From a bacterium BMS3Abin15 (lineage in GTDB: Bacteria; Patescibacteriota; Minisyncoccia; Moranbacterales; 2-12-FULL-40-10), in contig BDTH01000074.1 in assembly GCA_002923195.1 (NCBI GenBank), forward strand, positions 9,081 to 73,080: 64,000 nt of DNA. Direction: 5' to 3'. A program made the position numbers and the translations under genes. Positions 2,680-59,633 of the stretch are shown in pieces. Position 1 is the first letter of the stretch; each line of letters opens with the position of its first letter. The notes beneath the pieces were generated by a model. The model searched no databases and was not told the origin of the DNA. It saw only the letters and a program-made list of their open reading frames with translations.

Positions 2680-5600
2680 CTAGTCGCCGGGCCTTTCTTT
2701 TTCATCTTCTCTTTCTTTCTTAGCCCCAACTAATTCGATGTCCAGACACAGACCCTTAAGCTCGTTAACCAAAACATGAAAGGAGGCGGGAATATTAGGA
2801 CTTCTTATTGGCTCACCTTTTATGATGGACTCATAGGCTTTTGATCTTCCTAGGACATCGTCTGATTTTATAGTCAACATTTCTTGAAGCGTATGGGCAG
2901 AACCATATCCTTCCAGCGCCCAAACTTCCATTTCTCCAAATCGTTGTCCTCCAAATTGCGCTTTTCCTCCCAGAGGCTGCTGAGTTATCAAAGAATAAGG
3001 GCCAATGGATCTCATATGGATCTTGTCTTCCACTAAGTGATTAAGTTTCATCACATAAAGCACTCCTACTGTTGATTCATTGTCAAAACATTCGCCGGTT
3101 TTTCCATCAACTAATTTAACTTTTCCATTCTCGGGAAGACCAGCTTTTTTAAGCTCTTTCTTTATATCATTTTCATCTACTCCATCCAGTGAAGGAGTAG
3201 CCGCTTTGTATCCCAATTTTTGGGCCGCCCAACCAAGATGAGTTTCCAAAATTTGACCTATATTCATACGGCTAACCACTCCCAACGGATTAAGTATTAC
3301 ATCCACGGGAGTTCCATCGGGAAGATAGGGCATATCCTCTAATGGGGCAATTCTGGAAATAACTCCTTTGTTTCCATGGCGTCCGGCCAATTTATCACCG
3401 ACCGATATTTTTCTAAGTTGAGCTATCGAGACCTGGATCTGCTGAATAACTCCGGTAGGAAGCTTATCCCCTTGTTCCCTTGAGAAAATTTTAATATCTA
3501 CTGCCTTCCCATGTTCTCCGTGAGGAAGGTAAAGGGAAGAATCTTTGACATCCCGGGATTTTTCTCCAAAAATAGCGCGAAGCAGTCTCTCTTCTGCTGT
3601 TAGATCACCTTCTCCCTTGGGAGTAATCTTACCTACTAAAATGTCGCCGGAAGAAATTTCTGCCCCGACTCTAATGATTCCGGTTTCGTCCAGATTTTTT
3701 AGACGCTCTTCTCCGATATTAGGGATATCCCTAGTCACAACTTCCGGTCCCAATTTTGTATCCCTAACGTCAATTGTAAAGTCTTCAATATGGATAGAGC
3801 TATAACGGTCCTCTCTTAACAGTTTTTCAGAAATAATAATAGCATCTTCAAAGTTATATCCTTCCCAGGAAACAAAAGCCACAAGAACATTTTGTCCCAA
3901 AGCCAATTCACCATTATCAGTAGAAGCTCCATCTGCTAAAAGCTGGCCTTTCTTTATCTTATCCCCCTTGGATACCCGGGGAATCTGGTTCATGCTCGTA
4001 AAAGCATTGGACTTAACAAAACTTTGTAATCTATAGTCCCGTTTGTAATATTCTTTTTTGGCTCCAACCGGGGATTTTTCTTTTACCATAACGTGATCAG
4101 CGTCAACTTCCACTACTTCTCCGTCCTTGACCGCTAAAACCACTTGTCCGGAGTCGGAAGCTGCCTTATCTTCTATTCCTGTTCCCACGATAGGAGATTG
4201 GGGCATAACACAAGATACAGCCTGACGTTGCATATTTGATCCCATAAGGGCACGGTTAGCATCATCATGCTCTAGAAATGGAATTAGAGAAGTAGCTACT
4301 GAGATGCACTGTTTAGCAGAAACATCGACGTGATCTAATTTTTCTGCCTCTATCATTTCCGGATGTCCTTTCACTCTAGCCTCAACCAAATCATCTAAAA
4401 TATTATTATTTTCATCGATATTAACTCCGGCATGGGCAATGTTTTTGCGGTCTTCGACAGTAGCATTAAGATATTCTATTTCGCTGGCTATAAAAGGTCT
4501 TATTTTAACAGTTTTTTTATTTGTGTCAGCGATTTTTCTTGCCAGCTGTGAATTAATCTTTTCTCCAATATCAGCTACGCCAGAAATATCTTCATTTAAA
4601 ATTCTTTTTTCTAAATTTCCAGCCTTGTTTTCTACCTCCTTAACAACATTAAGATAAGGCGTTTCTAAAAACCCGTATTCATTTACTCGGGCATAAGTTG
4701 CCATATGGCCTACCAATCCGATGTTCGGACCTTCAGGTGTCTGCACCGGACAGATTTTCCCATAGTGAGAATGGTGGACGTCACGAACTTCAAATCCGGC
4801 TCTTTCTCTGGTCAGTCCCCCCGGTCCCATGGCTGAAAGACGCCTCTTGTGTTCCAGTTCGGCCAGGGGATTAACTTGATCCATAAATTGGGAAAGTTGA
4901 GAACTGGAAAAAAATTCTTTAACTGCGGCCGCCAGTGGACGGGAGTTAATTAGTTGGCCGGGAACTACGGTCTCTAAATCACAAGTACTCATTCTGTCTT
5001 TTATATTGCGCGTCATCCTGGTGATTCCAACTCTCAATTTGTTTTGAACTAATTCTCCCACTCCTCTTATTCTCCTATTGCCTAAGTGATCGATGTCATC
5101 TGCTTGCGCTAGCGGATTATTATTAAGCTTGATAACTTCTTTAATTATTGATACCAAATCTTCTATTTTAAGAACCCTGTTTTCTTCATTGTTAGGCCTT
5201 TCAGTATTTAACCGCTGATTAAGCCTGTATCGCCCCACTTTCCCGAAGTCGTATCTCTCGAAATTGAAGAACATAGCATCAATCATCTGCTTAGCATTTT
5301 CAATGGTGGCCATATCACCGGGACGGATTCTTTTGTACACCTCTATATATCCCTCGCCTTGGTTCTTGGATGAATCTTTCGCGATGGTGCTTTCAATGTA
5401 TTTAATTTCTCCTGTATCCACATCGGTGAATTCCTTTTCAATCTTCCCGTTAGTATCATGGCCAAAAGCGCGAAGCAGCGCTGTGATAGGAACTTTTCTT
5501 TTTCTATCAATTTTTACTGAAATCACGCCGTCTAAGTCAGTATCAATTTCCAGCCAGGCGCCGCGGTTGGGAATAATCTTAGCTCCAAAAAGTTTTTTTC

Positions 5601-6144: not shown

Positions 6145-6561
6145 TGCTCAATGAGGTTTATGAAAAGATATTTAATTGCTTATTGAATAAGTCATTCCCC
6201 CTTGACCCCGTATATACAAAATACGGTTGGTTTTCACTATATAAAAAATGTATGACTTTTATGAGAATATTCAGTCTTGACCCCGTTAAACCTTCGTCCT
6301 GAGTTTGTCTGCGCCCCATGTAAATCAAAGATTTAACGGGGTTGACAAGTATTGTTCATTGTATACCTAAGTGGAAAATAATGCAAGAAATAGCTTACTT
6401 TTCCGGATTTAAGCACCTAAAGATCTTAACATTATATTGTTTTCTTGTCAAATATGGCTTAAATAAAGGATTTTTAAAAAATGTCGGTTTTTTATCCAAT
6501 TACAGAATTAACTCTATAATTAATTTAACCAACAAGTTATCCACAATTTAGTAACTCTTTC

Positions 6562-8119: not shown

Positions 8120-9283
8120 TTAGCGAAGTGCCTCATTGATAACATCTTCGTCTTGACAGGAATACTTTCTATCCGCAGAATAAAACCTTTCATATTTACC
8201 GTGGCATCCCCCATTGTATTTTGGTAGTGGCGTCGTTATCGGCATTAAAAATCCCATATCGCGAGAAGTAAAAAATTTATGCAGACTGCGTAATGTTTTA
8301 GTCCTGGTATCTTTGTTCATATTAACAAAAATACTCATATCATCCCCGGACTTGGCACTCCAATCAAGATGAAGTAGGACATTATTGGCTTTGGAAGAAA
8401 ATCTTTCGTGCCAGATAAGCGCCCAACACCAATCACCTTCCTGCTGCCACCAGTGAGAATGGCAAGGACCGTCCTCTATATTTCCGCTGCCATCTATGCC
8501 CACGCCGCCTTCAATGTAATCAAAAAGTTTTAAGTATTCCGGGTTATCAATATCATTCGTTTGGGCGCCAATTACAATTTCTGTATTTTTAAAGTCAGCG
8601 TACTCTCTCATTTCCCGGATTATTTCCGGAATTATAGGATTAGAAAGATCGCTTCTTTCCTGATAAAAAATTTGACCGAATAAAAAACTCTGGATGCCCA
8701 TGTCTATGGCCTGTTCGGTGATGTATCTTAAGTATTTCCTGTATTCTTCTTTTTTGAAAGACGGAATGCAGGTATGCTCCCCCCAGAAATTCTTGCTGTG
8801 CCCGCGGCACATCTCGTCAAATTCAAATTCCCGTTTTTCAGCCGGATAATAATAATTATCTTTCACATCAATAGCTTCGGCAATGAACATTCCATAAACG
8901 ATATCTTTCTTTTTGATTTTCTTTTTGATTTTTTTGGCCTTTTTAAAATCAGGCGGCTCCAGCCAAGTTTCAATGGCCCGATGGAGATAATAGCATTCCG
9001 ATCGATTAATCAGTTTAGCGTTTTCATTTGTTCTTCCCCCATAACTGGTAAGAAATCCGTCAGCCACGCATCCTTTGGTTTTCATCTTTTCCATTGATGG
9101 AGGCGGGGGTGGGGGCAATGGATCAGGGAGCACCTTTTTATATAATCTTATCACTATGGGAACATATTTTGTTTCGTCATCAACTGAAAAGCTTGAAGTA
9201 AAGTCAATCAAAATAGCAGTTGTAAATATTGCAACTGACAACACAATTATTATTCCTTTCCACGTTTTGATAGGATGTGCCAT
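8120..9283 (-). CDS. Hypothetical membrane-anchored protein with poly-proline linker and a Cys/Trp-rich extracytoplasmic domain
   Basis: 387-aa ORF with N-terminal TM and PPPPPP linker; no recognisable catalytic motif. Confidence 0.6.
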   Translation of the reverse strand: MAHPIKTWKGIIIVLSVAIFTTAILIDFTSSFSVDDETKYVPIVIRLYKKVLPDPLPPPPPPSMEKMKTKGCVADGFLTSYGGRTNENAKLINRSECYYLHRAIETWLEPPDFKKAKKIKKKIKKKDIVYGMFIAEAIDVKDNYYYPAEKREFEFDEMCRGHSKNFWGEHTCIPSFKKEEYRKYLRYITEQAIDMGIQSFLFGQIFYQERSDLSNPIIPEIIREMREYADFKNTEIVIGAQTNDIDNPEYLKLFDYIEGGVGIDGSGNIEDGPCHSHWWQQEGDWCWALIWHERFSSKANNVLLHLDWSAKSGDDMSIFVNMNKDTRTKTLRSLHKFFTSRDMGFLMPITTPLPKYNGGCHGKYERFYSADRKYSCQDEDVINEALR

Positions 9284-13742: not shown

Positions 13743-13883
13743 AGGAAGCAAATAGAGTCTCAAAAGTTTATCAATCAGTGTCTCGTAAGTGCTCTGTTTA
13801 AAAGGGGTCAGGAGCATTAGAGGAAATTACCTCTCCCCGTTCCCAAAAGGGAATGAAGAAAGAGGACCTATATTTCTAGGACA

Positions 13884-13912
13884 AGGGCCATTCATATGAA
13901 TGGCCCTTTTTA
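13884..13912 (+). terminator. Rho-independent terminator (agggccattca-ta-tgaatggccct + T5) closing the ORF-less transcript
   Basis: 11-bp perfect stem followed by TTTTT. Confidence 0.6.
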
Positions 13913-13940: not shown

Positions 13941-13984
13941 AAGCCGTAGTCTCTGTAATAAGAGACTACGGCTTAGTTTTAAAG
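13941..13984 (-). terminator. Rho-independent terminator of the aminotransferase gene (14-bp stem aagccgtagtctct / agagactacggctt)
   Basis: Perfect stem; U-run on the minus strand. Confidence 0.6.
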
Positions 13985-16433: not shown

Positions 16434-16605
16434 TTCATACCCCCTTAAAATTTTTTGTTAAGTTAACTGATAAGAAAGCATAGCACCCCAGCTATGTTTC
16501 TGTCAATCCATATGTAGAATTAAAAAATTGACAAAAGAGCATGCTAACGTTATGCTTTTTCAATCAATACCTAATAGTAAATATTATAAAAAAGGAGGTA
16601 TAGTA

Positions 16606-16938
16606 ATGAATGGTAACCCACCCGGAATACCCCTGCATCCAGCATACACAAGCGAGACTCATGGATTTGAGAAATATTTACGTCACCATGGCGGTGGCCA
16701 CAATCTTCTGAGGACCAAGCGGATTGCCCAGCCCTGCACTCTGCAAATAGGTGATATTCTTGCCAACGGAGATAGAGTATTATCCCTTCCCAGAGAGGGT
16801 GGCAATGGATCGGTTCTGATTCATTTGACCGGTGGCCTTTATGGACATTGGATAGGCGTTCCCGCTCGTATTCCGATTGCGCTACTTACAAAAGAAGATG
16901 GCGCACCAAAAGAAATATGGGATCTGGAAAAAGAATAA
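16606..16938 (+). CDS. Hypothetical protein (110 aa; ORF-track ORF begins at 16528, but the AAGGAGG RBS supports ATG 16606)
   Basis: RBS aaaggaggt 8 nt upstream of ATG; high-GC coding composition. Confidence 0.55.
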   Translation: MNGNPPGIPLHPAYTSETHGFEKYLRHHGGGHNLLRTKRIAQPCTLQIGDILANGDRVLSLPREGGNGSVLIHLTGGLYGHWIGVPARIPIALLTKEDGAPKEIWDLEKE

Positions 16939-16950
16939 GAAAAATAAAAA

Positions 16951-16978
16951 GGTCTGTGAATTATCACAGACCTTTTTT
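16951..16978 (+). terminator. Rho-independent terminator (ggtctgtga-atta-tcacagacc + T6)
   Basis: 9-bp stem followed by TTTTTT. Confidence 0.65.
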
Positions 16979-16996: not shown

Positions 16997-17069
16997 GTGC
17001 AGGAGCTTAATACGTATTAAGCTCCTGCACATATCTACAATCATCTTCTGACGGCCGTCAGAAGATGAT
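16997..17069. repeat. Composite palindromes A (gtgcaggagcttaata-cg-tattaagctcctgcac) and B (atcatcttctgacgg-ccgtcagaagatgat)
   Basis: Two perfect palindromes of 34 and 30 bp separated by 9 bp. Confidence 0.7.
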
Positions 17070-17072
17070 GCC

Positions 17073-17633
17073 TTAAGTAGTTTTAAAAAAGCGCCTTTTA
17101 AGTTTTGTTTCATTATCAATTTTGGTAGCTGTAATTACCCGCACATAAGGCCCAGCCGAATAAAGAGCAATTAATTCTAAAATGGGTTTCTCGAAAGGAT
17201 ATGGAGAAACAAAAACACTGTGCTGAAGCTTAAGAAATTTGAGTGCTCGAAGATGTTCGCGCAAAATGTTACGAAAAAATCGATCTTTTTCAGGAATATC
17301 AAAAAGTACTATTCTCCATTTCTTATCCCAGCGTTTAGGCTTTTTAAGATTTATAGAATTACCCACCAAACTAAGTAGCTTGGCTTGTCGTTTTCCTTCT
17401 TTAGTAAGAATTAACTTGAAAGAACCGCCAGGGAGCGTTTTCTCTTTAATTAATTTTTCTTGAGAAAGTCGGCGAATGGAGCGATTAAAATTTTGCCTAT
17501 TTATTTTTCCCCAATCCTTCCGCAATTTTCGAAAAGTCCTAAAATACTGTCTAGGCGACGAAGATAATCCCATTGCTACTCCACCCATAAGCGCCAAAAG
17601 AATCTTTTTTTGTGCCGATCCGAATCTATACAT
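17073..17633 (-). CDS. Hypothetical basic protein; C-terminal segment has a Cas2/VapD-like signature (WRIVLFDIPE...LQHSVFVSPY)
   Basis: 186-aa ORF flanked on both sides by the A/B palindromes in inverted order. The Cas2-like assignment is by eye only. Confidence 0.55.
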   Translation of the reverse strand: MYRFGSAQKKILLALMGGVAMGLSSSPRQYFRTFRKLRKDWGKINRQNFNRSIRRLSQEKLIKEKTLPGGSFKLILTKEGKRQAKLLSLVGNSINLKKPKRWDKKWRIVLFDIPEKDRFFRNILREHLRALKFLKLQHSVFVSPYPFEKPILELIALYSAGPYVRVITATKIDNETKLKRRFFKTT

Positions 17634-17644
17634 AATTTTACTAT

Positions 17645-17728
17645 ATCATCTTCTGACGGCCGTCAGCAAATGATTGTTTTTTGTATTTGAGTCTGTGTAG
17701 GAGTTAAATGCGTATTGAGCTCTTGCAC
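17645..17728. repeat. Palindromes B' and A' (degenerate copies), in order inverted relative to 16997..17069
   Basis: atcatcttctgacggccgtcagcaaatgat ... gtgtaggagttaaatgcgtattgagctcttgcac. Confidence 0.65.
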
Positions 17729-17830
17729 AGAGGCCCGCTTCGCCGAATCGAGGCGAGTAGGCAAGCCTGAACGATGTTATGCTTTCATTATATTCTCCTT
17801 TTCCCAAATATAAAAGCGTCTTAGGGGGAG

Positions 17831-18556
17831 TTAATTATTTTGTATGTGCATAAAATTCAAGACTGTTTGGCGCGCTTGCACAATTTCTTCAAGTGTCAGG
17901 TTAAATCCATCAGCGCCTTGGGACATTAAGCGCCCTTCATCGTTTGGCACATGGCCCAGGCCGAAGACATGTCCGATTTCATGGGCAAGAACCCTGAAAT
18001 CATAGCTGGTAGTTAAATCAGCCACAGTAACAACTCCTAAACCGACAAATGCGATTCCATTCAGACCCATAAGTGTTTCTTTTAAAAAAACATTAATGCG
18101 GTGATTATGGTAATCACGGATATTGGCTACAAAAGCACCGGGATCATGCAGAAATGCATTAATCTCTTCGTCACTTAATTCAAGAAAAATAATTTCTTCT
18201 ATGTCCAATTCAATCCCTGCCTGCTCCCATATCTTTGACGTATTTTCAACCAGCCGCCTCACATCTTCTTCTGATCTTTTAGAGCCTGACTCGTCATTTA
18301 CAAATACAAAAACCCGCAAAGGAAGCGCGACTAATTCAGCATCGAGTCTGTTCTCTACTTCCTTCTGAGTAACGCTGTCCGGTGTCCGTTGGTATAGAAA
18401 TAACTGATACACTCCTGAAATATAAAGAAGCCCTACGATTACAACAAGGGCGACCACTATGCGAATATATCGCAAAATTATCTCGCCTTTGGTTGGCTCT
18501 TTATGCTCCTTGTCTGGATCAAAAAGATTTGGATCATCAGGGTCAATTTTTTTCAT
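17831..18556 (-). CDS. Membrane-anchored zinc metalloprotease, metzincin type (HExxHxxGxxH)
   Basis: HEIGHVFGLGH motif; N-terminal TM helix. Confidence 0.8.
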   Translation of the reverse strand: MKKIDPDDPNLFDPDKEHKEPTKGEIILRYIRIVVALVVIVGLLYISGVYQLFLYQRTPDSVTQKEVENRLDAELVALPLRVFVFVNDESGSKRSEEDVRRLVENTSKIWEQAGIELDIEEIIFLELSDEEINAFLHDPGAFVANIRDYHNHRINVFLKETLMGLNGIAFVGLGVVTVADLTTSYDFRVLAHEIGHVFGLGHVPNDEGRLMSQGADGFNLTLEEIVQARQTVLNFMHIQNN

Positions 18557-20599: not shown

Positions 20600-22585
20600 C
20601 TATTCGTAGCGTAAAGCATCAAGCGCTGATATCTTTGTTGCCCGTTTTGCCGGATAAATGCCCGTCCCTATTCCAACAATTAGAGCAAGGAATAGAATTA
20701 GAAACACAAATAACGCAGGGATGTGCGACACATTTACAAACCCGACTCCCTTAAATAAAGCGAAGGCCGATAATATTAAACTGACGAGCTTGCCGCCTAT
20801 GAATCCGATGATTATGCCGATGACTCCGCCAAAAAATCCCATTATCATTGACTCGGTCAGAAACAACTCCCTTACTTCCGAGGATCTCATTCCCATAGCT
20901 TTCATCAGACCGACTTCTCTGGTGCGTTCAAGCAAAGACACGGTAAGGGTATTGAACATTCCCAACGCCGCCACGGACAGCGCCACGGTGCCCAATAATG
21001 CGAGTATTATTCTTACGGTCGCAAACAAGCTGTTGATTTGCTTGACCGTATCCACCACGGAAGAAGTCGCAAATCCCATAGCTTCAATCTTTCCTCTTAC
21101 ATCGCTTACTTCTTTCTGGCTAGTTAATACCACCGTTACTTGTGAGTAATTGGCTATACCCAAAGAACGCAAGTCTACAAAAGGAACATAGAATACCGGA
21201 GTCTTGTCTCCCGGTATTACCCCGACAATTACATATTCAGCAAATTCCGATTCTATCTTGTCTCCGCCATCAAATAACAGATCGCCTGTCACCACGAAAG
21301 AGGTGTTAAACTTCTCTCCTACCGCATTTCCTTCGTCAATGCCTAGCACTTTCAACATAGTCCTGTTTACCACCGCTTCTTTCTTGGCAGAAGGGGGTAA
21401 TACCACAATTTTCGTTTTTGCCGCCTGGGATGATTCTGATTCAGCAGGAATCTCCACCCAATCGACGGAAGTATCAGCCAGATCACTATCATCATCGGAA
21501 ACGCCCAATACTGCTGACGATCCGCTAATATTAACCAGGTCTGTTTCTGCTATATATCCGCTTTCTTGAGCATGATACGCGTTTTCATCTTTAATGGTCA
21601 GGTACTTCCCTTCTTCGCAATCCGCTTCATTAACATCGCAAGACTGGCGGTTCCAGAGATAGACCAAAGACTTAATCCACTTACCCATTTTTTTATCCTC
21701 ACCTACCAAAATTTTTCCGTTATCATTATCGGAGGCGTAGGGACTGCCCCAAACTTCGCTTCCCAAGTGCAGATCCTCAGTTCTCTTGGTGTATCCTAAT
21801 GTTTCCGAATTTGTATCTGGTCCTTCTCTTACTCTTACCCATTCTCCCGGATAAATGCTGAAATTGATTTCTTCTCTTGCTTTTTCACCCACCTTTTTTT
21901 CATCCCCTCTTGCAACTTCTTCCAATTCACTGACTTGTCCGAATACCTCGGCGACTATATCATTGCTTTCAAAAATATCTCCCCGGACCGGCTGGATAGC
22001 AGACTGCCTGAGGTAATCGGATGTGACGCCGTAAACCGCCATATCAGAAACAGATCCTTGGAAATCAACTTTTCCCACCACAGCAATAACAGGAAGCACC
22101 GCCTCAACATCGCTTATGCCTCTGAACTTGGCTAGCGATTTGTCATTAATTTTTATTTGCGATCCTGTCTGGGAAACAATATTTACCTGTCTCATTTCAT
22201 TAAGCTTAGCAACACGAGAAATTACGAGTTTCTGAAGTCCATAGCCCAGAGAAACAAGAAATACTATAGCGCCAATTCCCACCGCCATACCGCCGATGGT
22301 GATTATTGACCTGGAACGCTTAAAGTTCATGCTCTTGATGGCCAATTCAATAAGATTAACTCTGTTAATAGTGTTTTTGCTATGCCGGCTAAACTTTAAA
22401 ATATGAACATGTAAATTATTAAGAGGCCCTTTTAATTTATCCCTCATAATCTGCGGGGTAAATTTTCCCAAAAACCTGATAACCGAAGCAAGTAAATACA
22501 CAATTAACATTAAAACAAAAGTGCTTGTATACCATACAGACTTTGCGAAATTATCATAAATTCTTGTAAGCAGTTTTTTTATCAT
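20600..22585 (-). CDS. ABC transporter permease, FtsX/MacB-like, with large extracytoplasmic domain
   Basis: N-terminal TM, large soluble domain, C-terminal FtsX-type 3-TM bundle; overlaps the ATPase gene by 4 nt. Confidence 0.8.
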   Translation of the reverse strand: MIKKLLTRIYDNFAKSVWYTSTFVLMLIVYLLASVIRFLGKFTPQIMRDKLKGPLNNLHVHILKFSRHSKNTINRVNLIELAIKSMNFKRSRSIITIGGMAVGIGAIVFLVSLGYGLQKLVISRVAKLNEMRQVNIVSQTGSQIKINDKSLAKFRGISDVEAVLPVIAVVGKVDFQGSVSDMAVYGVTSDYLRQSAIQPVRGDIFESNDIVAEVFGQVSELEEVARGDEKKVGEKAREEINFSIYPGEWVRVREGPDTNSETLGYTKRTEDLHLGSEVWGSPYASDNDNGKILVGEDKKMGKWIKSLVYLWNRQSCDVNEADCEEGKYLTIKDENAYHAQESGYIAETDLVNISGSSAVLGVSDDDSDLADTSVDWVEIPAESESSQAAKTKIVVLPPSAKKEAVVNRTMLKVLGIDEGNAVGEKFNTSFVVTGDLLFDGGDKIESEFAEYVIVGVIPGDKTPVFYVPFVDLRSLGIANYSQVTVVLTSQKEVSDVRGKIEAMGFATSSVVDTVKQINSLFATVRIILALLGTVALSVAALGMFNTLTVSLLERTREVGLMKAMGMRSSEVRELFLTESMIMGFFGGVIGIIIGFIGGKLVSLILSAFALFKGVGFVNVSHIPALFVFLILFLALIVGIGTGIYPAKRATKISALDALRYE

Positions 22586-53996: not shown

Positions 53997-54006
53997 GACA
54001 CAAAAA

Positions 54007-54040
54007 GAGGCGTATTCAATTGAATACGCCTCTTAAATTT
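54007..54040. terminator. Perfect 14-bp hairpin terminator (agaggcgtattcaa/ttgaatacgcctct), bidirectional
   Basis: Palindrome flanked by A/T runs. Confidence 0.7.
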
Positions 54041-59602: not shown

Positions 59603-59633
59603 TAAAAAGGGGAATCAATTGATTCCCCTTTGT
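59603..59633 (-). terminator. Rho-independent terminator (aggggaatcaa/ttgattcccct)
   Basis: 11-bp perfect stem; U-run on the minus strand. Confidence 0.65.

Follow-up and report, generated by a model that had tools for sequence, protein, structure and literature searches.

The 64,000-nucleotide (nt) stretch of DNA analysed here, referred to as the window, derives from the bacterium BMS3Abin15 (Patescibacteriota; Moranbacterales) and corresponds to positions 9,081 to 73,080 of contig BDTH01000074.1; coordinates below are those of the window, and palindromic features are given without strand. A minus-strand gene in it (17073..17633), with an open reading frame (ORF) encoding a protein of 186 residues, here termed mini-PaaX, is bracketed by long palindromes on both sides. 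To the left of the gene are palindrome B (17040-17069), the putative downstream operator, which is perfect over 30 bp (ATCATCTTCTGACGGCCGTCAGAAGATGAT), and, distal to it, palindrome A (16997-17030), which is perfect over 34 bp (17+17, no loop) with the core TACGTA. To the right are B' (17645-17674), a quasi-palindrome and putative upstream operator matching B at 28 of 30 positions, and A' (17695-17728), a degenerate copy of A that matches it at 28 of 34 positions and lies at -62 to -95 from the ATG. The order along the window is A-B-gene-B'-A', with B' and A' mirroring A and B around the gene; the coordinates, the perfection of A and B and this order, all first reported in a sequence-only reading of the stretch, are confirmed. 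B and B' differ at two positions, and the six differences between A and A' comprise five transitions and one transversion. B starts 3 nt after the stop codon, with its centre 18.5 nt past it, and the centres of B and B' are 605 bp apart.

The palindromes and their mirrored copies are beyond chance expectation, in agreement with the sequence-only reading, which took the right-hand copies as real repeats. With up to three mismatches allowed, neither A nor B finds a match in 100 dinucleotide-preserving shuffles of the window. The B/B' repeat reaches 3 nt further outward from the gene than the palindromes themselves (17037-17069 versus 17645-17677; 33 nt, 94%), and because the flanks have in common an outer ACA on the left and TGT on the right, they form a true inverted repeat, not merely swapped palindromes. 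At the same mismatch limit no further copies of A or B are present in the 64-kb window beyond the four flanking ones, and the 8-mer core ACGGCCGT occurs in it only in B and B'. Palindromes resembling A are absent from 1.2 Mb of related loci, so that A/A' is a second, lineage-specific palindrome pair. The idea that A and B are abundant, genome-wide repetitive extragenic palindromic (REP) elements, raised as a possible refutation in the sequence-only reading, is thus rejected on account of the uniqueness of both in the window and the absence of A from the related loci. Near-identical strains keep the whole A-B-gene-B'-A' unit without change.

A short way past A is a bidirectional intrinsic terminator (16946-16977; 14-bp stem, T runs on both strands), which is common to the regulator gene and a convergent plus-strand gene (16528..16938); it is context, outside the repeat system. 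This genome uses perfect palindromes flanked by A and T runs as bidirectional terminators (at 13883, 54005 and 59606, and at 16946-16977), and A and B might on that ground be taken for generic intrinsic terminators of chance resemblance. Such a reading has a vanishingly small probability, since A and B have no flanking T runs, and it is refuted by the absence of matches in the shuffles and by the recurrence of the layout in 64 of 77 homologous loci as against nine of 80 control genes (see below).

The profile comparison of the protein suggested in the sequence-only reading identifies the PaaX central Cas2-like domain (Pfam PaaX_M, PF20803) at residues 100-175, with 74.4 bits versus a cut-off of 24 and an E value of 7.8e-21; PF20803 is present in all 120 listed homologues. 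The Cas2/VapD-like signature that had been recognised in the C-terminal part is therefore real, but it is that of the PaaX central domain, the Cas2 models all remaining below their cut-offs: Pfam Cas2 (PF09827) reaches 16.9 bits versus 23.8 and NCBIfam Cas2 (TIGR01573) 20.1 versus 24.5, both over residues 106-142 only, and the PADLOC Cas2 models match the same residues weakly (~20-21 bits). The NCBIfam PaaX equivalog model (TIGR02277) gives 25.6 bits, far below its cut-off of 264.55. The Pfam search gives no match to the C-terminal effector domain PaaX_C, the protein ending at residue 186, and none to the PaaX N-terminal domain, the N-terminal region matching HxlR (E 0.14) and QsrR/MarR (E 0.1-0.8) models, all weakly. 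PaaX_M, PaaX, Cas2 and HxlR are the only matches in Pfam and NCBIfam, with no transposase, recombinase or HUH domain.

An AlphaFold2 model built from 22 homologues has a mean predicted local distance difference test (pLDDT) score of 67, with values of 75-88 for the C-terminal domain and 55-68 for the N-terminal part. Its topology is H-H-H-E-E, followed by a linker helix and a b-a-b-b-a-b ferredoxin-like domain. In a Foldseek comparison with the PDB the best match is PaaX of E. coli W (8a39), over 174 aligned columns that include the N-terminal part; further matches are M. tuberculosis Rv0674, then many Cas2 chains and VapD (E 0.02-0.06 for VapD). From the PaaX_M match, the model topology and the fold match to 8a39, the protein is predicted to be a two-domain mini-PaaX, made up of a winged helix-turn-helix (wHTH) at its N terminus and a Cas2-like domain. 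The 186-residue ORF is real. All 22 aligned homologues begin with the same MY.FG (M1, Y2, G5), and the MYRFG start at 17631-17633 is thus family-conserved, the identical public protein (P0001) having been called from an internal Met to give 166 residues. The most conserved part is the Cas2-like domain, with the pattern KPKxWDGKWR-IV-FDIPE...R...QxSVFxSPYP, which is nearly constant even in members with only 32-45% overall identity; the wHTH diverges. D112, which aligns with the catalytic Asp of Cas2, is invariant in the 22-sequence alignment.

Moranbacteria and other Patescibacteria abound in homologues of ~186 residues that are 70-80% identical. When 1.84 billion cluster representatives (50% identity) were searched with a profile, 4,632 relatives reached E <= 1e-3 and 2,328 of them E <= 1e-10; nearly all have 180-200 residues. 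In representative genomes 279 loci encode a relative, 80 of which were fetched. Several small genomes carry two to four copies, typically 67-73% identical in DNA, and over 12 genomes paralogues in the same genome are 66-81% identical at the DNA level, apart from one 96% pair of contig-end fragments; judging from this divergence they are old. In the exceptional pair, from one bin, the family gene is split over two contig ends (L036 3001-3501 and L039 1-495), the 96% identity of the overlap suggesting that the gene is present as two closely similar copies or else that variation among strains interrupted the assembly. The neighbours at the 80 loci are unrelated housekeeping genes, and no conserved neighbour family was found among them, although they were not screened with cas or VapX models.

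The site-gene-site layout is a property of the family. Where enough flanking sequence is available, the 300-bp upstream and downstream flanks have a 20-50 bp motif in common at 64 of 77 homologous loci, versus nine of 80 control genes taken from the same loci, only two of these nine motifs being site-like. The Moranbacteria-type site approximates to (T)CAT-N6-ACGGCCGT-N6-ATG(A), as in B, and distant members (32-45% identity) have the same layout with other cores, i.e. CGATCG, CGTACG, CCATGG and GCTATAGC. About half of the family sites are perfect palindromes, of 24-50 bp. Many loci have their upstream and downstream copies in direct orientation, others in inverted orientation, and some have two to five copies on one side of the gene. 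A divergent 208-residue protein that was missed by the family hidden Markov model (HMM; L135, 254-1006) also has two flanking ACGGCCGT sites; it has an FDIPE...QQSVW Cas2-like motif and a different N-terminal half.

The upstream copy stands in a fixed relation to the start of the gene. In 11 distinct loci the distance from its centre to the ATG is exactly 26 nt, and in four more it is 29 nt; at the window locus the centre of B' is 26.5 nt before the ATG. Alignment of the upstream regions on the ATG reveals, in most Moranbacteria-type loci, a TGnTAnAAT extended -10 box at -15 to -7 (hexamer -12 to -7). The predicted box in the window is TGATATAGT (17640..17648, minus strand), its hexamer likewise at -12 to -7 from the A of the ATG. 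Because the hexamer ends 7 nt before the ATG, its placement implies that the mRNA would be leaderless and start at ~17633. B' spans the spacer and the TG/-10 element of this predicted promoter. It also contains TTGCTG (17664..17669, minus strand), 18 nt upstream of the -10, which matches the -35 consensus at three of six positions and was negative in a simple scan, making it a weak -35-like candidate. This hexamer owes its existence to the two positions at which B' departs from B, which may be why the upstream copy is imperfect and the downstream copy perfect.

Most loci have the downstream copy directly adjoining the stop codon, with its centre at +8 or at +18/19 after the stop (18.5 in the window); in the +8 loci the TAA stop codon is inside the arm TCATAA. 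At non-family genes near sites there is no preferred distance to the start codon and no peak at 26 nt, and the proposal that dispersed sites act as leaderless promoters of other genes was rejected for this reason.

Among 132 sites, two-fold symmetry is strongest at half-site positions d1-4 (the core) and d11-14 (TCAT/ATGA); positions d5-10 are complementary in only 50-65%, with many of the mismatches being transversions, and sense-strand mismatches compatible with G.U pairing are no commoner than A.C mismatches. Such a profile points to a symmetric protein-binding site and not to a selected RNA stem. The sequence of the putative recognition helix also varies with that of the site, NFNRS occurring with TCAT arms, RRSFNxS with GTAAT arms and, in distant members, KRAI..LY with other cores. 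This co-variation, which was observed directly, is supportive, though not conclusive, of recognition of double-stranded DNA by the protein, shared ancestry confounding the comparison.

It might alternatively be argued that the palindromes act as transcript hairpins, with a stabilising or terminating role at the 3' end or as a regulatory stem at the 5' end, perhaps bound or cut by the Cas2/VapD-like domain, whose fold is related to those of the Cas2 and VapD RNases. In predicted folds B (-18.7 kcal/mol), A (-24.1 kcal/mol) and the terminator form three consecutive hairpins in the 3' untranslated region (together -72 kcal/mol, z = -12), and such a role would suit both the abutment of the downstream copies to the stop codon and the observation that downstream sites are more palindromic than upstream sites. 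We regard this reading as quite improbable. The frequent transversions at d5-10 and the lack of any excess of G.U over A.C tell against it; B' lies upstream of the predicted leaderless start; A' has no fold on the sense strand of the gene (-1.2 kcal/mol), even though it still folds as plus-strand RNA (-12.9 kcal/mol, via G.U pairs) because four of its five non-Watson-Crick positions are G.T on that strand; and the predicted N-terminal wHTH, together with the co-variation with site sequence, points to double-stranded DNA. Neither at the window locus nor across the 80 loci was a small conserved partner ORF or an antitoxin-like partner gene found. No match to known RNA families reached threshold. 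The notion, in the sequence-only reading, of a toxin-like RNase framed by REP-like structures consequently has little in its favour, given the missing partner gene, pairing statistics that speak against hairpins and the finding that A is not a REP.

On balance we favour, with some confidence, the reading that the gene encodes a mini-PaaX autorepressor with an auxiliary downstream operator; of the options put forward in the sequence-only reading, that of a regulator with palindromic operators is the one borne out by the PaaX fold, the family-wide layout and the position of B', at fixed distance, over the predicted promoter. In the proposed mechanism the short PaaX-like factor probably dimerises via its Cas2-like domain, and the two winged helices of the dimer would be offered to an operator of two-fold symmetry, ~30-36 bp long, which in this lineage would be ATCAT-N6-ACGGCCGT-N6-ATGAT, i.e. 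palindrome B. Because B' lies over the spacer and TG/-10 of the promoter predicted for the gene itself, protein bound there would exclude RNA polymerase, so giving negative autoregulation. B may be a second, optimal operator, which either loops to B' or acts as a roadblock or insulator against transcription from the convergent neighbour; the substitutions in B' would then be explained by its second role as a promoter.

Comparison with characterised systems helps to place this proposal. In PaaX a wHTH is combined with a dimerisation motif and with an effector domain at the C terminus, and the protein binds the palindrome TGATTC-N27-GAATCA (PMC9493321); E. coli PaaX represses its own Px promoter by steric hindrance (PMC9493321). 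The family protein resembles PaaX in having a putative N-terminal winged helix followed by a central Cas2-like domain, with the conserved WDGKW motif before beta-1, and the layout here suggests, by analogy, that a long palindrome and repression of the own promoter may likewise be features in common. By contrast it has 186 residues as against about 305, lacks the effector (phenylacetyl-CoA) domain, and has an operator of the form TCAT-N6-ACGGCCGT-N6-ATGA which is present on both sides of the gene, with multiple paralogues occurring in tiny genomes. No paa (phenylacetate catabolic) genes are among the window neighbours, and the neighbours at the 80 homologous loci are unrelated. The Cas2-type motifs FDIPE and Q.SVF are kept in the family; in E. 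coli PaaX they appear degraded.

Cas2 and VapD have in common with mini-PaaX the ferredoxin-like b-a-b-b-a-b fold, and there is sequence similarity at beta-1/alpha-1, including D112 at the catalytic Asp position. Unlike them the protein scores below the Cas2 cut-offs and has its Cas2-like part fused to a predicted DNA-binding domain. As the sequence-only reading had stated, there is no array of clustered regularly interspaced short palindromic repeats (CRISPR) nearby: neither a CRISPR-like nor any other tandem or spaced repeat array was found in the 64-kb window, although the remaining ORFs were not screened one by one for cas genes. The protein also differs from VapD of VapXD systems in not being a stand-alone RNase, the structural similarity being weak and a small conserved partner ORF being absent. 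The lac (O1-O2), gal and deo systems have repressors with auxiliary operators and use DNA looping; the present layout is similar in that two or more putative cognate operators, the first at the promoter and another downstream of it, are separated by hundreds of bp, but differs in that the auxiliary site is just past the repressor's own stop codon and in the family-wide conservation of this arrangement.

Several observations weigh against an autorepressor with simple operators. The downstream B and A lie between convergent genes, and because there is no promoter there to regulate, a pure operator model fails for them. About half of the sites are perfect palindromes, and at several loci (L013, L044, L065 and L066) the differences between the upstream and downstream copies are symmetric, a change in one arm being compensated in the other, which a simple operator does not require. 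Sites remote from family genes (solo sites; see below) occur in every intergenic arrangement (22 co-directional, five convergent, four divergent) without fixed distance to start codons, and the genes beside them have no functional theme in common. The -35-like element of B' is weak (three of six positions), and a better sigma-70-like promoter, TTTATA-N16-TATAAT, is present on the minus strand at 17814-17787, which would put A' and B' in a 5' leader. Finally, the Cas2-like domain is, by sequence, conserved above the wHTH and retains D112, and may do more than dimerise.

An alternative reading, which we consider unlikely, if to be taken seriously, sees the palindromes as termini, or as scattered descendants, of a selfish or domesticated element of the REP/REP-associated tyrosine transposase (RAYT) or mobile-cassette type. 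In this reading the wHTH-Cas2-like protein would be a site-specific nuclease or mobilisation factor, for which the invariance of D112 would be apt, and A-B...B'-A' would be composite terminal inverted repeats, in keeping with the mirrored order and the common outer ACA/TGT. REP/RAYT systems likewise have a gene flanked by cognate short palindromes, paralogue-specific variants and solo palindromes in other intergenic regions, and in the present family synteny is lacking among homologous loci, two to four paralogues per small genome each have their own site variant, and solo sites are found in every intergenic orientation. By contrast with REP/RAYT, however, the family protein is not a HUH/Y1 (IS200/IS605-like) transposase, consistent with the Pfam and NCBIfam results; sites appear to be few per gene in the metagenome sample described below; the upstream copy is linked to, and carries, a predicted promoter at an exact distance from the ATG; and the symmetry of the sites is of the protein-binding kind.

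The sequence-only reading had also considered a compact mobile unit and suggested that target-site duplications be sought outside 16997 and 17728. All that is present there is a 9-nt direct repeat, CAGA(GG)CCCGC, imperfect and placed immediately beyond A and A' (p about 0.01), and this weak candidate duplication, the age of the paralogues and the variable orientation of the flanking copies (direct in many loci, inverted in others) argue against a mobile unit. Recent transposition in particular was rejected, since the 66-81% identity of the paralogues, the 96% contig-end pair apart, leaves no recent copies. Association with phages was rejected as well, a collection of 2.9 million viral contigs containing a single family locus. 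A partially syntenic related genome (L205), found via the closest homologues of neighbouring genes, has neither the gene nor the sites, as a mobile cassette might predict, but it is not a clean empty site and is uninformative, synteny being broken downstream also.

The distribution of solo sites is relevant both to the autorepressor reading and to that of a mobile element. A scan of metagenome contigs, taken as an unbiased sample, for TCAT-N6-ACGGCCGT-N6-RTGA gave 120 loci, including many GC-rich chance matches, and the 72 low-GC loci were used. In these, 26 of 88 sites (30%) are within 200 bp of a family gene, so that the association of site and family gene is very strong, yet solo sites exist. 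The counts from this metagenome sample imply that solo sites number only a few per gene, and a small regulon is a better fit to them than a REP family. The possibility that solo sites are relics of decayed gene copies was rejected: in HMM searches of six-frame translations around 49 sites none scored above controls, and beside solo sites there are no gene relics apart from two anecdotal cases, which would favour mobility. In these two, L093 (1380-1440) and L014, the regulator promoter/operator together with the first few codons (ATGTATAAC...stop) is copied 2 kb from the intact gene; the copies may be remnants of duplicated or decayed cassettes. In L014, L023 and L093 the solo copies have 44-52 nt in common with the gene's own site in the same locus.

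Two further arrangements of solo sites were observed. L014 contains three copies of a 140-nt module (1431-1570, 2906-3045 and 6413-6552), the site being part of the module. The 3.8-kb contig L172 (1-3814) has no family gene and contains four co-oriented genes, each with a ACGGCCGT-type site in the preceding spacer; by eye their products are alpha/beta hydrolase-like, of unknown type, with an FtsK-gamma-like C terminus, and ArdC-like with HExxH.

A related proposal, which we rate as doubtful and rather improbable, is that of a self-contained Patescibacteria module in which the wHTH-Cas2-like protein, still catalytically competent via D112, recognises, maintains or propagates its own near-perfect palindromes, or which is a portable promoter/insulator cassette that seeds solo sites. 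If true, it would constitute a REP/RAYT-like partnership based on a Cas2-fold protein in place of a HUH transposase, and so a novel way for a protein and palindromic repeats to be paired.

In the tiny genomes of Patescibacteria (the Candidate Phyla Radiation, CPR) regulators that can be recognised are very scarce. Mini-PaaX belongs to a large family in these bacteria, often with several paralogues per genome, each copy being flanked on either side by a palindromic site of its own. The results provide a concrete and testable regulatory code for uncultured organisms, in the form of a base-exact promoter geometry that implies a leaderless transcript and of the co-variation of protein and site. 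The family is also intermediate between Cas2 and PaaX in sequence features, and so bears on how a fold used in CRISPR and toxin proteins may have been recruited as a dimerisation module of transcription factors. In the literature searched no paper was found joining PaaX with Cas2 or PaaX with Patescibacteria, and no description was found of a truncated PaaX-like family of probable Patescibacteria repressors with a conserved self-flanking operator layout and the promoter geometry of a leaderless transcript.

The window genes near the regulator encode a metalloprotease, response regulators, an aminotransferase and small ORFs of unknown function. The spacer past the metalloprotease stop, which contains the TTTATA-N16-TATAAT sequence, is conserved between the window (17760-17830) and L205 (5730-5800), where the metalloprotease orthologue is 83% identical; different genes follow this spacer in the two genomes, homology ending at ~17760. 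A CGCC-N7-GGCG hairpin upstream of A' was considered as a family-wide element and rejected as not recurrent.

A strain that is 99.2% identical overall (L081) has an identical regulator cassette and two dense patches of divergence from the window, which look like imported recombination tracts. The first (17754-18200; ~35 changes) covers the 3' half of the metalloprotease gene and the downstream spacer, ending 25 nt before A'; the strain comparison assigns it to the metalloprotease gene region, and it was rejected as a feature of the cassette. The second (21600-21800; ~38 changes) is within an FtsX/MacB-like gene. Elsewhere in the window there are perfect or near-perfect palindromes, at 13883-13908, 13941-13974, 54005-54034 and 59606-59631, that are flanked by A and T runs and unrelated in sequence to A and B; they look like bidirectional intrinsic terminators, zero-loop perfect palindromes apparently often being so used in this genome.

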